64,000 nt of DNA. It comes from Kofleriaceae bacterium. GTDB lineage: Bacteria > Myxococcota_A > Polyangia > Haliangiales > Haliangiaceae. The DNA lies in the NCBI GenBank assembly GCA_046597055.1, contig JBKJLC010000293.1, forward strand, positions 43,974 through 107,973, given 5' to 3'. The position numbers were made by a program. Positions 27,201-30,200 of the stretch are shown piece by piece. How positions within the stretch are numbered: position 1 is the first letter of the stretch; every line of letters begins with the position of its first letter.

Positions 27201-30200
27201 AGTGCGCCTTGTTCAGGGGCGCGGCGTCCAGAGCGCGCGGTTGCCCGTTTACGCTCGTCGACACGCACGCGGCGATCTACGAGAGACCGCCTCGCGCTGG
27301 CTCGCATCGGTCGCCCGATGGTCGCTACCTTGGGCCCGTTATAGTTACGGTAACCAACACATTCCGGCCCGTGACGTATCCCTGGGGGGAATCGAACCCG
27401 CCATACCTGGTTTGAGAGACCAGTAGACTGACCACTGTCTGACAGGGACATCTTCGCGTGGCGCTTGCGCCCAAGGCGCCTCACGCCACGCGATCTTCGA
27501 GGGCCCGGCGGGAATCGAACCCGCACCTCGCAGTTTAACAGACTGCCGCTCAGCCAGTTGAGCTTCGGACCCAGACACGCCACGGTCGTGAGACCGCGGC
27601 GCGTGCGTGTTGAGGGCGACTCTCGTCGTGGCCTGGGCCGAAGCCTAGGCGCGGGCGAAGTCGCTGATCACCGGCGGCGTCGCCGTGTCGAAACCGACCA
27701 CGTCGAGCATGCCGGCGTCGTTCGGGTCCGCGATCGTGAACCCGTTCGAGGTCATCCCGACCACCACCAGCTTGGCCGGGATGCCGCGCGCCTGTCGATA
27801 GGCGCGCAGGGCCTGGGCCGGGTGCACGCTCCCGGCCCAGGTCTCGCTGTCCGTGTACACCACGAAGGTGTCCACATCCACCTTGTGCCGCTGCGCCCAG
27901 ATCATCGGGAGCGCGCAGTCGGTTCCACCCATCGGCAGCTTGGCGACCGCCGCGACCACGTCGTCGAGCCGCTGGCGCGGCGAGATCGACAGGGTCGTGA
28001 TGCCCGACTCGCCACCGCCGTGCATGCCGCCGTAGCCACCGCTCGCCGCGGTGAAGCCCACGAACGTGTGGTCACGCTCGGTCGCCGCGGTGATCAGCGC
28101 CATCGCCGCGCTGCCGACCCGCGGCGTCAGGCCGGGCACCCCGGCGATGGTGCCGCACGCCATCGAGCCCGACACGTCGAGCGCGAGCAGCATGCGCTTG
28201 CCGGCCGGCTCGACCGCCTTGAACGAGGCGTAGAACGCACCGTCCAGGGCGTCGATGATCGGCGTCACCGGCGTCCAGGTGCCGCTGCCACGGACGCTCT
28301 TGCCACCCTGGTAGGTCAGGAGCGCCGCCAGGACCGCGACCGGGTGGACGCGGGCCTTGGCGATCCGGTTCGCATCACCCAGCCGCGCGACCACGGTGTT
28401 GGTCGCGTTGGCACCCGGCGCGAGCAAGCCCGCACGGGTCATCGTGGCCAGGTTCCGGATCATCGCCGTCATGGGCATGTCGACCAGCAGCGCGTCCCAC
28501 ACGCCGGCGTCGTTCAGCCAGCGCGTCGGCAGCGTCTCGCGCGGCAGCCGGAACTCGCGCACCAGCGCCGCCACCTCGGCCGCAGTACCGGCCGCCTTCA
28601 CCGCCTCCATGCCGATCAGCAACCGCAGCGCCGGGTCGGCGCTCGCGCCATCCGGCACGGTTCCCTTGGTCACCCACGAGAACAGCCGATCGTGCGATGG
28701 CGACGCGGCGCGCGGGTGCGCGAGCCGCAGCAGGTCTCGGTTCGACCAGCCGTCCCGCTGCTGGTACTTCACCAGCTGCAGCGCGAGGTCGGCCGCCGGC
28801 TTGTCGTTGAACCAGCCGGCCACCGCCTTGCGCATGCCACGGCCCCAGCCGCCGAAGCCCTGCGCGTACTCCGCGAAGTGCATGAGGTGAGTGCCGATGC
28901 GGCAGACCGTCGGCAGGGCAGCGTAGGCGCTCTTGCGAGTCGCCTCGTCGCCGAGCTTGGCGGCCAGCGCCAGGGCGAAGATCGCCGGGTCGTTCTTGGG
29001 CGCCCGACCCGCCTGCGAGATCTCGGCGATCCGCGCGACCGTGCGCGGACCGTCGGCTGCCACGCAGCGGACCACCGTCTGGGCAGTCTCGAGCGTCAGC
29101 TTCTGCTCGGAGATGTAGTAGGTGCCGCCCTCGCTACCCAGGATGAGGAAGCGATCGAGCCGCGCCCAGTCGTCGACCGGCCAGGCGAAGCCCCCGGCCA
29201 GGTTCGGCACCTGCGCCGTACCCGGGATCGGCTGCGACTGCGGCGTCGCCTGCGTCGAGAAGAACTTGGTGAACTTGAACACGGCACGCCTCCGGCCCAC
29301 GCGGTGGGCACTGCTGGTTGGGCTCGGCCACGCACCATGCGCGGCGAGCGAGATCTGTAATGAGGAATCGCTTCGCGAAGCGCTCGATGCCTCCCGGCGG
29401 CATCGCCGCCGCACCACCGGAGGTGGCGGACTGGCGAGTCTTCGAGCCGGTCGGAGGAATCGAACCTCGTTGGGTCGCTTACGGAACGACTGCTCGCCCA
29501 GCGAGCTACGACCGGCGGAAACTGGCGGACAAGTGGCACTCGTGGGGGTCTGTTATCAGGAGAACCCACGAGCATCGGCCCGCGCAGAGCGGCGCGCGGG
29601 AGTTGCACCCGCACGGTCAGGGTGGAGGCCTGGCATGCTGCTGTTACATCAGCGCCGCGACACGAAAGAGCAGGTGGTGGGAATCGAACCCGCGATCCCG
29701 GCATGGCGTACCGGTGTGTCACCACAACACTTCACCTGCGGCGGTGTGCCTCGAGTGTCCTCGGGGCCACCTGACGGTCGTCGGCGCGCTCGGCAGGGCT
29801 TCGCGCGTCGACGAACGCATCGTGGGTCGGGCGGGAATCGAACCCGCGTCGGGGCAGATTAAGAATCTGCTGCAAAGCCAGCGTTTGCTACCGACCCAGT
29901 TGCCGCGCCAGGCGCGGCGAGTCTCGTCCCACCCCCTGGAATCGAACCAGGACCTCTCGGGCTTCAGCCAAGCGCGCAGACCACATGCGCCAGGGTGGGG
30001 TTGTGCGGTCGCCGCCGACCGCTGGGGAGCGGGTGACGACGACCTTCCGAAATGGGCGCCCGCGCTACCGGGCGCCCCATCATTCGTCTCTTCGGTTGTC
30101 AGAGATCCACCCCGCGCGTCCGTCGGCCCGTGCGGGCAGACCTCGAGCGGGGCCGCGCCGTTTCATGGGCGCAGCAGTACCGGGCCCAGGATTCGAACCT

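Follow-up and report, generated by a model that had tools for sequence, protein, structure and literature searches.

A gap of 198 nt between two tRNA genes, downstream of a Ro60 gene, holds a short copy of 23S rRNA that covers the loop of helix 69 (H69). It lies in the 64,000-nt stretch of DNA from a soil myxobacterium of the Kofleriaceae analysed here as a whole (the window). This locus raises the question of what carries the copy: a stray piece of an rRNA gene, a DNA target, or an RNA with a function of its own, and, if the last, whether this function involves Ro60. Taking structure, linkage to Ro60 and H69 mimicry as a whole, we put the probability at about 0.7 that the gap encodes a Y RNA of the Ro60 type with a module copied from 23S rRNA.

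Position and extent of the RNA

The features of the locus are collected in Table 1. The Ro60 gene scores 595 bits with the NCBIfam Rsr model, which is under the 900-bit cut-off of that model. The candidate RNA starts 274 nt 3' of this gene; the conserved element that the initial annotation had placed downstream of Ro60, on its strand and between two tRNAs, was seen again on the minus strand. Its length had been given as about 125 nt. This is too short, because a conserved 3' strand close to tRNA-Arg(acg) pairs with the 5' strand and the RNA therefore fills the whole gap. An RNA of about 190 nt would be released from the tRNA-array transcript by tRNA-processing enzymes, its termini presumably being set by processing of the 3' and 5' ends of the flanking tRNAs. 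Copies of the RNA measure 164-265 nt. The window RNA folds with an MFE of -92 kcal/mol (z -3.33), and 1 of 200 shuffles was equally good. A protein-coding gap was rejected because the open reading frames (27059-27583 on the minus strand, 26962-27426 and 27056-27415 on the plus strand) cross the tRNA genes and the lengths of the indels between relatives are not multiples of three.

Table 1. Features of the candidate RNA and its neighbours (positions in the window)
Feature	Position	Strand	Remarks
Whole candidate RNA	27178..27375	-	complete 198-nt gap, tRNA-Glu(ctc) to tRNA-Arg(acg)
Terminal (Ro60-type) stem, 5' strand, ACGGGC[C]GG	27364..27372	-	bulged C at 27366
Terminal stem, 3' strand, CUUGCCUGU	27180..27188	-	stops 2 nt before tRNA-Arg
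Upper stem, 5' strand, UGUGUUGG	27354..27361	-	partner strand 27193-27200
Upper stem, 3' strand, CCAACACA	27193..27200	-	covariation count and RNAalifold
29-mer copy of 23S rRNA	27322..27350	-	H69 stem-loop, C-UAA-G triloop, GUAGCGA; E. coli 1908-1936 by counting
Helix 69 copy proper	27336..27350	-	stem CCGU/ACGG (four pairs, against six in the 23S helix), 7-nt loop AACUAUA
Triloop hairpin CC-CAA-GG, two pairs	27328..27334	-	counterpart of the 23S lone-pair triloop; Rfam CS '<___>'
GNRA hairpin CAUCGG-GCGA-CCGAUG	27305..27320	-	position of the next 23S hairpin
Variable 3' domain, three further hairpins	27201..27304	-	differs between genera
tRNA-Glu(ctc)	27376..27449	-	directly upstream of the RNA
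tRNA-Arg(acg)	27107..27177	-	directly downstream of the RNA
Ro60/Rsr gene, 590 aa	27645..29417	-	vWA_Ro60 8.2e-64, TROVE 5.3e-45

A Y-RNA-type stem and covarying helices

The 5' and 3' ends of the RNA form a long stem in which seven pairs show compensatory changes, and RNAalifold agrees. Its terminal part (alignment A1, columns 1-9 with 329-336) is 94.4% paired with double changes in three pairs, and RNAalifold independently gives the same terminal stem; the upper part (columns 16-20 with 290-294) is 95.8% paired with double changes in four of five pairs. Of the terminal stem the initial annotation had noticed the 5' strand alone; the stem is now found to covary together with its bulged C. The C bulge is preserved in all copies. 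We take a bulged C within the helix to be a hallmark of Ro60 binding.

At the 5' end GGGCCG is invariant (29/29 copies), in line with the conserved Y-RNA-like 5' motif claimed before, and the 3'-strand motif YUUGYCYGY was detected in 27 of 30 copies by regular expression and in the remaining three by eye. The Ro60 contact motif as given by Chen et al. (2014, PMC4201824) is GNCGAAN0-1G / GGUCCGA, with GGUCCGA in vertebrates. It is present exactly in 12-14 of 29 copies, and the window copy, which reads GCCGGAAUG at this place, is one base off the published motif. Judged by sequence, the 5' motif of the RNA appears to resemble the Ro60 contact motif. The Rfam Y RNA and YrlA (RF02553) models gave no match at the element with E up to 10. 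A tRNA-like domain was also looked for: no RF02553 or tRNA match was obtained in 27178-27375 with E up to 10, and T-arm, D-arm and acceptor-like stem are absent from the fold.

The modelled structure supports the view that the RNA is built as a Y RNA. To this extent the earlier reading stands, since the 3' strand was found, the bulged-C stem covaries and Ro60 adjoins most copies, but to call the RNA "the second" Y RNA is not correct, since the same Y-type stem recurs in at least seven other elements of the window's array.

The helices between the two ends, other than the H69 stem, also covary. Over the whole RNA, in an alignment of relatives that are all kin and were found through their likeness to the window, 17 pairs show double changes as compared to 9.3 in shuffles, a count reached by 0 of 500 shuffles, and slid controls were at most 46% paired. 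RNAalifold independently arrives at these helices, and 26 of its 39 pairs are compensatory. Within the 3' domain, helices 80-83/168-171, 173-175/224-226 and 179-185/214-222 covary. The GNRA hairpin that follows the 29-mer, for which covariation had been claimed, shows compensatory changes in all six pairs and has GCGA, GUAA, GCAA or GUGA as its loop. The next hairpin of 23S rRNA is helix 71. The proposal that the GNRA hairpin stands for helix 71 is weaker than that for H69: the two agree in relative position only, the sequence of the GNRA hairpin covaries freely, and 9 nt of the 23S linker are absent. A recount gave 31 invariant columns among 29 sequences, which replaces the former 36 in 13 copies.

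Distribution and linkage to Ro60

When 138 genomes of the family were searched with an independently built covariance model, 43 gave one strong match each (42.1-100.3 bits), which reproduces the single match in 43 of 138 genomes counted before. The true 23S genes had then been said to give no match; the new model does score them, at 27-36 bits, though weakly. Of the 43 family copies, 41 follow Ro60 directly and share its contig and strand. The RNA is present in 42 of 84 family genomes with Ro60 versus 1 of 54 without, and the sole copy in a Ro60-less family genome is degenerate. A pattern search of the genomes of 185,579 species yielded 30 matches, 27 of them with Ro60 just upstream. Outside this family, two other families of the class have copies as well; in G145, which belongs to another family, the copy follows Ro60. 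A phage origin was considered and rejected, as the Y-type pattern gave 0 matches in viral contigs and the sole viral match of the 29-mer was an ordinary 23S fragment.

These counts bear on an alternative in which a structured RNA works without Ro60, either as a decoy or sponge for H69 ligands or as an element that serves the processing or regulation of the tRNA operon, and the synteny is simply inherited. Two genomes of another family, G180 and G188, carry the RNA with its bulged-C stem intact and gave no TROVE or vWA_Ro60 match, and in G188 the RNA lies between an HD-domain ORF that ends 25 nt before it and tRNA-Leu; these genomes, however, are only 83% and 70% complete, respectively. Three further copies (G071/L047, L054 and G016) lie away from Ro60, two of which, the orphans L047 and L054, are intact, L054 having a gene for an RNB/S1 exoribonuclease 1.4 kb upstream. 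Moreover, 42 of the 84 Ro60-bearing family genomes are without the RNA and have other small Y-stem RNAs at that place. Against this stand the adjacency to Ro60 of nearly all family copies, the decay of the one copy in a family genome that lacks Ro60, and the terminal helix itself, which with its bulged C is of the Ro60 type and is common to the other Y-stem elements of the array. We consider a role without Ro60 unlikely but worth weighing.

In divergent members the module is only partly retained. Genus g7 has lost the 5' half of the H69 hairpin and in G130 only this hairpin survives, with its loop changed; thus no sub-part is universal.

The copy of helix 69

Since no 23S gene is present in the window's own assembly, all comparisons were made with the genes of relatives. 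Four full-length genes served as references (RF02541, 2805-2847 bits, model 1-2925, uninterrupted), and the window 29-mer is identical to them at 27 of 29 positions (E 6.6e-8), as had been reported for the core of the element. A search of the window with the 29-mer returned 1 match, compared with none in 100 shuffles. Among 29 relatives' copies, identity to the 23S 29-mer was 29/29 in 7, 28/29 in 11, 27/29 in 5 and 25/29 in 6, so that 23 of the 29 share 27-29 positions with the relatives' 23S.

In E. coli, H69 comprises 19 nt (1906-1924), forms bridge B2a to h44 of 16S rRNA and is a substrate of RluD, according to PMC3973299 and PMC7530986. The assignment of the copy to H69 is supported by the Rfam 23S structure and by the sequence printed in PMC3973299: CCGU-AACUAUA-ACGG agrees letter for letter with the relatives' 23S and with the printed H69. 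Of the 19 nt, 15 recur in the RNA, among them all seven of the loop, and after them come the 14 nt that continue the 23S sequence. The copy differs from ribosomal H69 in that it is without the two basal pairs, which leaves a 4-bp stem, and in that it lies outside the ribosome in a Y-RNA frame.

The 15-nt copy is unchanged in 23 of 29 copies (by column counts), and the loop letters are conserved in 27-29 of 29. Three of the four stem pairs are invariant and the fourth shows C>U only, with zero compensatory changes among 29 sequences. Because all other helices covary and the H69 stem never does, the sequence of H69, beyond its fold, is preserved. The triloop pair (columns 42-46) changes from CG to AU in three sequences. 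The sole free position of the 29-mer is column 40 (G10 A4 C6 U9), whose partner in 23S is absent from the RNA.

As identity to 23S is the main feature of the element, a functionless 23S rDNA fossil has to be considered, either a remnant of an rRNA-tRNA operon or a patch brought in by gene conversion from rrn operons. A second, colinear 12-mer, AGCGAAGUAGCA in L011, matches 23S at 12/12 positions about 73 nt further on (E 0.18) and hints at a longer 23S ancestor. This 12-mer has a pairing partner inside the RNA, the first GCGA, and so need not be ancestral. Over the 7.3-kb array, likeness to 23S with E < 0.01 is confined to 29 nt and there is no RF02541 match in the window, while the flanks, unrelated to 23S, are part of one covarying fold. 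The 29-mer, moreover, is kept at 25-29 of 29 positions across genera and three families, against a mean column identity of 46% for the whole RNA. Gene conversion is argued against by column 40 and by lineage-fixed differences, which have not been homogenised to the 23S letter; also, the rrn operon of the relatives is about 20 kb away. A fossil is therefore very improbable. Still less credible is a DNA-level element, a spare target of a homing endonuclease that cuts 23S rDNA: an HNH_5 endonuclease ORF does lie inside the array (25206-25754) and the 23S stretch of the 29-mer is a classic site of homing endonucleases and introns, but the four relatives' 23S genes are uninterrupted over model 1-2925, the HNH family has about two copies in 135 of 138 genomes whether the RNA is present or not, and compensatory changes at the RNA level are not expected of a DNA target.

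Three further ideas about the module were dismissed. Mimicry of 23S beyond the 29-mer amounts to the one colinear 12-mer, which taken alone lacks significance (E 0.17-0.18), other short matches not being colinear. Imitation of an anticodon loop or T-loop by the 7-nt loop does not fit, since by eye its second base is not U. A decoy for a toxin was thought of because one mycobacterial MazF is reported to cut 23S just 3' of the 29-mer stretch; the stretch that is cut is the 9-nt linker, precisely what the RNA lacks.

Comparison with known RNAs

Leaders of ribosomal-protein operons carry rRNA-mimicking sites. They are similar to the RNA described here in that a short copy of an rRNA site stands in another RNA, so that the rRNA ligand binds. 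The leader sites, however, act in cis within an mRNA and have ribosomal proteins as their ligands, whereas ours is a separate small RNA, and H69 is not known to have a ribosomal protein of its own as ligand.

YrlA (RF02553) is a bacterial Y RNA that mimics tRNA, and TruB and DusA modify its tRNA-like module. Y RNAs act both as tethers between Ro60 and PNPase and as gates of the Ro60 cavity, and Y RNA inhibits Rsr-dependent maturation of 23S rRNA (all from Chen et al. 2014, PMC4201824). As with YrlA, the gene of the new RNA adjoins Ro60/rsr, its ends form a Ro60-type stem that appears to carry a GNCGAA-like motif, and its inner module imitates an RNA of translation and could be read by the enzymes of that RNA. 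Unlike YrlA, it copies H69 of 23S and not tRNA, has no T-arm or D-arm, does not match RF02553, is longer (164-265 nt) and has tRNA genes on both sides. Yrn1 of Deinococcus radiodurans, part of the Ro60/Y RNA/PNPase machine (RYPER) as summarised by Chen et al. (2014), is a Y RNA serving as tether and gate of an rRNA-handling Ro60 ring, as is proposed here, but in the new RNA the likeness to rRNA sits within the Y RNA itself.

In the literature consulted, the bacterial Y RNAs described so far have tRNA-like or simple pyrimidine-loop modules, and the targets of these modules are mostly unknown. The species table of Chen et al. (2014), in five of its six supplementary files, has no entry for Haliangium, Kofleria or Myxococc-; nothing comparable to the RNA was found in Rfam, and literature searches gave no paper in which helix 69 or mimicry of rRNA is connected with Y RNA or Ro60. 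The RNA would be the first Y RNA to imitate ribosomal rather than transfer RNA. We regard it as a real and new form of Y RNA with an rRNA-derived module, the mechanism of which we infer.

Possible mechanism

The lower helix of the end stem, GGGC[C]GR with YUUGYCY and a bulged C, would be of the Ro60-binding type. Given this design and the gene linkage, the RNA would most likely be bound at the outer face of the ring formed by the Ro60 that is encoded upstream. The part of a Y RNA that reaches the partner would here be a multi-helix module whose first elements seem to be copied from the bacterium's own 23S rRNA, namely the H69 hairpin with its full loop, the lone-pair triloop, the GUAGCGA strand and a hairpin at the position of the next helix. 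Because the H69 sequence is fixed while the other helices drift by compensatory change, the module appears to have been selected to resemble H69 for something that reads the H69 sequence.

Three roles may be suggested, in order of preference. The module could bring the Ro60 particle to the ribosomal partner of H69, namely the side of free 30S subunits that is formed by h44 (bridge B2a), and thereby allow Ro60 with its exonucleases to act on rRNA. Secondly, the module could serve as a pseudo-substrate and in this way occupy Ro60's own rRNA-handling activity or regulate it. Thirdly, it might bind a protein that reads H69, for example RluD, RlmH, RRF or HflX. A more specific form of the first role is speculative and, as a full scheme, doubtful: the copy of this central bridge element of the 50S subunit would be an address label, the H69 loop with the triloop and hairpin docking in the h44/h45 pocket of free or faulty 30S subunits, which is normally taken by 50S. 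Such docking would bring the ring close to the 3' end of 16S rRNA, so that exonucleases guided by Ro60 could trim this rRNA or destroy it. The RNA and the tRNA-like Y-stem RNAs of the array would then make up a panel of Ro60 guides, each mimicking another RNA of translation.

A letter-perfect copy of H69 as the module would name the class of target, that is, whatever reads H69, on which subunit joining, decoding, recycling and several antibiotics converge. This fits what is known of bacterial Ro60, which acts in the maturation of 23S and in the decay of rRNA, and the module therefore offers a direct, testable handle on how Ro60 may be aimed at ribosomes. It also suggests that small RNAs can arise by copying pieces of rRNA.

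Metatranscriptome contigs

In four runs from three studies, no metatranscriptome contig lay on the RNA, although contigs cannot show absence. Contigs of these runs cover the coding part of Ro60 (27615-28016), and one more lies at 26922-27077. One 31-nt metatranscriptome contig with a depth of 25000 was true 23S (2 differences).

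Results

Downstream of the Ro60/Rsr gene, whose product scores 595 bits with the NCBIfam Rsr model and thus under that model's 900-bit cut-off, a gap between two tRNA genes contains a candidate RNA, here called H69 RNA, with an internal 29-nt stretch (29-mer) that resembles 23S rRNA.

Features of the Ro60 locus in window coordinates
Feature	Position	Strand	Remarks
Hsp70-like flanks of array	16659-19204 and 31865-34669		
tRNA array	23837-30388	minus	25 tRNA genes
HNH_5 endonuclease ORF	25206-25754	minus	within tRNA array
Five hairpins GCCCG-N3-4-CGGGCCG	26145-26787	minus	inside tRNA-like elements; Y stem closed by small loop
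tRNA-Arg(acg)	27107-27177	minus	
Inter-tRNA gap containing H69 RNA	27178-27375	minus	198 nt
Terminal stem	27372-27364 with 27188-27180	minus	ACGGGC[C]GG with CUUGCCUGU
Upper stem	27361-27354 with 27200-27193	minus	UGUGUUGG with CCAACACA; above terminal stem
29-mer	27322-27350	minus	one occurrence in window; match in 0 of 100 shuffles
5' strand and internal stretch, compared for likeness	27360-27372 and 27328-27339	minus	relatives in the alignment
tRNA-Glu(ctc)	27376-27449	minus	
tRNA-Asn, then 49-nt hairpin spacer	3' of Ro60, before tRNA-Glu(ctc)	minus	
Ro60/Rsr gene	27645-29417	minus	590 aa; mid-array; vWA_Ro60 8.2e-64, TROVE 5.3e-45
Plain hairpin RNA, 70 nt	29517-29586	minus	small loop; between tRNA-Gly and tRNA-Thr; stem GCGGGC[C]GA with CUUGUCCGC

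Because no 23S gene was found in the window's own assembly (94% complete), the full-length genes of four relatives (RF02541, 2805-2847 bits, model positions 1-2925) were used as reference. All four contain an identical 29-mer, which that of the window matches at 27/29 positions (E 6.6e-8). When the whole array (7.3 kb) was compared with these genes, nothing further matched at E <0.01. In the Rfam 23S structure line the 29-mer comprises, in this order, a hairpin (6-bp stem, 7-nt loop AACUAUA), a one-pair triloop (C-UAA-G) and GUAGCG; 9 unpaired bases and a second 6-bp hairpin follow. We take the parts of 23S after helix 69 (H69) to be helix 70 and helix 71. The Rfam structure and the sequence printed in the accessible part of PMC3973299 identify the hairpin of the 29-mer as helix 69. 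According to that part, E. coli H69 comprises 19 nt (nt 1906-1924), of which 1911, 1915 and 1917 are pseudouridines and A1913 belongs to bridge B2a; 15 of the 19 printed letters are retained in H69 RNA.

Judged by its sequence, H69 RNA is a molecule of Y-RNA architecture. A DNA search of the family's 138 genomes returned about 34 real homologues, together with many 29-nt matches that are the true 23S genes. Across the full inter-tRNA gaps of relatives, the 3' motif YUUGYCYGY is conserved, closely followed by the next tRNA in genus g1 and by a U-run in genus g9. Its pairing partner is the 5' strand NCGGGC[C]GR, which is invariant and keeps one C bulged. Since the strand before the next tRNA pairs with the 5' strand, the RNA is longer than the ~125 nt proposed in the initial annotation. 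The closing stem was found in nearly all of 30 homologues, each folded singly, and the window RNA folds at -92 kcal/mol (z -3.33). Its 5' motif is one base from the published GNCGAAN0-1G, which 12-14 of 29 aligned copies match (accessible text of Chen 2014, PMC4201824).

The fold is conserved by covariation. In an alignment of 29 full-length RNAs (164-265 nt; the copy of the unpublished genome G037 excluded), the named structure was 90.7% paired versus 82.5% in shuffles, 17 pairs had changes on both sides versus 9.3, and 0 of 500 shuffles reached any of five measures, figures that overstate independence because the sequences are kin found by likeness to the window. Slid controls preserve this relatedness, yet at no more than 46% paired they remain cleanly separated from the named structure. 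The terminal stem was 94.4% paired with 3 covarying pairs, and the upper stem 95.8% with covariation in 4 of 5 pairs. All six pairs of a GNRA hairpin 3' of the 29-mer covary, and the triloop pair changes from CG to AU in three sequences. Without a supplied structure, RNAalifold predicted the same helices and four extra in the 3' half, with compensatory changes in 26 of 39 pairs. A third hairpin, after the GNRA hairpin, carries the pyrimidine-rich loop CUCUCGU in the window and most other copies, and CACCUCCUCG in some g1 relatives (L007, L009, L017).

The H69 copy is conserved at the level of sequence. Unlike every other helix, the H69 stem shows no covariation in any of its four pairs; three are invariant and the fourth varies by C>U only. 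The loop letters are conserved in 27-29 of 29 sequences, and the 29-mer is identical to 23S at 29/29 positions in 7 copies, 28/29 in 11, 27/29 in 5 and 25/29 in 6. Its sole free position is column 40 (G10, A4, C6, U9), which by counting corresponds to U1923, whose 23S partner G1907 is without counterpart in H69 RNA. Upkeep of the copy by gene conversion from rDNA would not have left column 40 free, and a neutral fossil would not have kept the remainder of the 29-mer; both explanations are unlikely. From the freedom of this one column and the retention of the rest, we conclude that the module is under selection to present the H69 sequence. The hairpin after the 29-mer was previously read as mimicking helix 71. 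It does occupy the place of the next 23S helix, and three copies even have UCGGGUAA..CCGA there, but its sequence drifts and the 9-nt 23S linker is missing, so the likeness is positional only.

In genus g9, the 5' Ro60-type strand ACGGGCCGAAAGG and the internal 23S-derived ACGGUCCUAAGG, aligned with one gap, share 10 of 12 positions. The internal stretch of relative L022, GGUCCGAAGG, includes the vertebrate Ro60 contact motif as quoted in the accessible text of Chen 2014. The likeness of the two strands may be due to chance, mark an alternative pairing partner of the 3' strand, or bear on how the motif arose.

The occurrence of H69 RNA is linked to Ro60. With our covariance model of the first 80 positions, 43 of 138 family genomes gave a strong match (42.1-100.3 bits), exactly one in each, a count equal to that in the initial annotation; the true 23S genes, said there to give no match, score 27-36 bits with our model. 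Ro60 was detected in 84 of the 138 genomes, and H69 RNA occurs in 42 of these 84 versus 1 of the 54 without Ro60 (tallies include the unpublished G037 among the 43, and G037 and G038 among the 84). Judged by coordinates, Ro60 precedes 41 of the 43 copies by 140-800 nt, with gene and RNA sharing contig and strand. In G071 Ro60 is on a different contig. Genome G016 (73% complete) is without Ro60, and its copy is decayed, with altered 5' motif and loop and an insertion in the triloop. An exact-pattern scan covering 185,579 species, one genome each, gave 30 matches, 27 of them with Ro60 immediately upstream; 29 are in Kofleriaceae, Haliangiales, Myxococcales, Myxococcota, Deltaproteobacteria or Polyangiaceae MAGs. 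The last, in a Treponema MAG, looks like chance because about 3 chance matches are expected by arithmetic. The same scan of viral contigs gave 0 matches. H69 RNA lies between tRNA-Glu and tRNA-Arg in genus g1 and between tRNA-Asn and tRNA-Glu in genus g9, and locus L055 has Ro60, H69 RNA and an HNH gene without a tRNA array; H69 RNA therefore travels with Ro60 and not with a particular tRNA.

Copies were also found in two further families (sample of 151 genomes of the class). In G145, H69 RNA adjoins Ro60 within a tRNA array. In G180 (83% complete) and G188 (70% complete) the bulged-C stem of H69 RNA is intact and has itself changed by covariation (GAUGGAC[C]GA with UCGUUCAUC), yet neither genome yielded a TROVE or vWA_Ro60 gene. 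Two copies away from Ro60, each a single case, adjoin genes of RNA metabolism: they lie 25 nt after an HD-domain ORF (G188, locus L081 2449-3223) and 1.4 kb after an RNB/S1 exoribonuclease (L054 6-1610).

Half of the Ro60 genomes are without H69 RNA. Four such loci (L066-L069) have other small RNAs of ~90 nt in its place, after tRNA-Asn or tRNA-Glu. These RNAs show its 5' and 3' stem motifs (NGGGCCG and YUCGCCYG), have the core GCUUCGUUACCAU in common, and are alternative modules. Among divergent members, UAUAACGGUCCUAAGGUAGC persists in genus g7 although the 5' half of the H69 hairpin is gone there, G130 has a ~75-nt mini form with the hairpin only and an altered loop, and one ~110-nt form retained only H69 and the triloop.

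Hairpins of the GCCCG-N3-4-CGGGCCG type number 8 in the window versus 0.8 expected. The elements that hold five of them have D-arm, T-arm and acceptor-like ends, and score only 17-31 bits with RF02553. One possible reading of these elements is tRNA/Y-stem chimeras that keep the native tRNA order; another is tandem YrlA-like units that were read across unit borders. The plain hairpin RNA resembles the simple second Y RNAs described in the accessible text of Chen 2014. Recurrence of this stem motif along the array suggests that the locus encodes a whole set of Ro60-type RNAs whose modules differ.

Discussion

RNase P and tRNA 3' processing would release H69 RNA from the array transcript, the Y-type stem would bind Ro60, and the module would act as an H69 look-alike. 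We prefer the reading that, through H69 RNA, the Ro60 particle would dock on free 30S subunits at the face that binds H69. As a second choice, it might be a pseudo-substrate or gate in Ro60's own rRNA work; as a third, it might capture an H69-reading protein. For tethering, as for a mimic read by the original's enzymes, the accessible text of Chen 2014 (PMC4201824) holds precedents: Y RNA genes lie no more than 2 kb from rsr, a Y RNA tethers Rsr to PNPase, Rsr-dependent 23S maturation is inhibited by Y RNA, and TruB and DusA modify the tRNA-like module of YrlA. According to the accessible part of PMC7530986, bridge B2a connects H69 with 16S helix 44, RRF deforms H69, and capreomycin binds it. 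Transcript contigs covering H69 RNA were not seen in the public expression data examined, and contigs cannot show absence.

Y RNAs as such are known; new here is a candidate Y RNA with a module copied from a piece of rRNA. Rfam has no match at H69 RNA, our literature search found no paper linking Y RNA or Ro60 to helix 69 or rRNA mimicry, and the searchable supplements of Chen 2014 have no Haliangium or Kofleria entry.

The locus may have a nuclease partner in the HNH_5 product. Its protein family is present at about 2 copies per genome in 135 of 138 genomes (70-88% identity), and most Ro60 loci have a paralogue 2-3 kb downstream of Ro60. The HNH domain of the window ORF comes closest to the IscB and Cas9d domains, with scores far under their cut-offs. 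Hsp70-like genes border the array: DUF2760 and an HSP70-family ORF at one end, HSP70 and DUF3731 ('DnaK-related') at the other.
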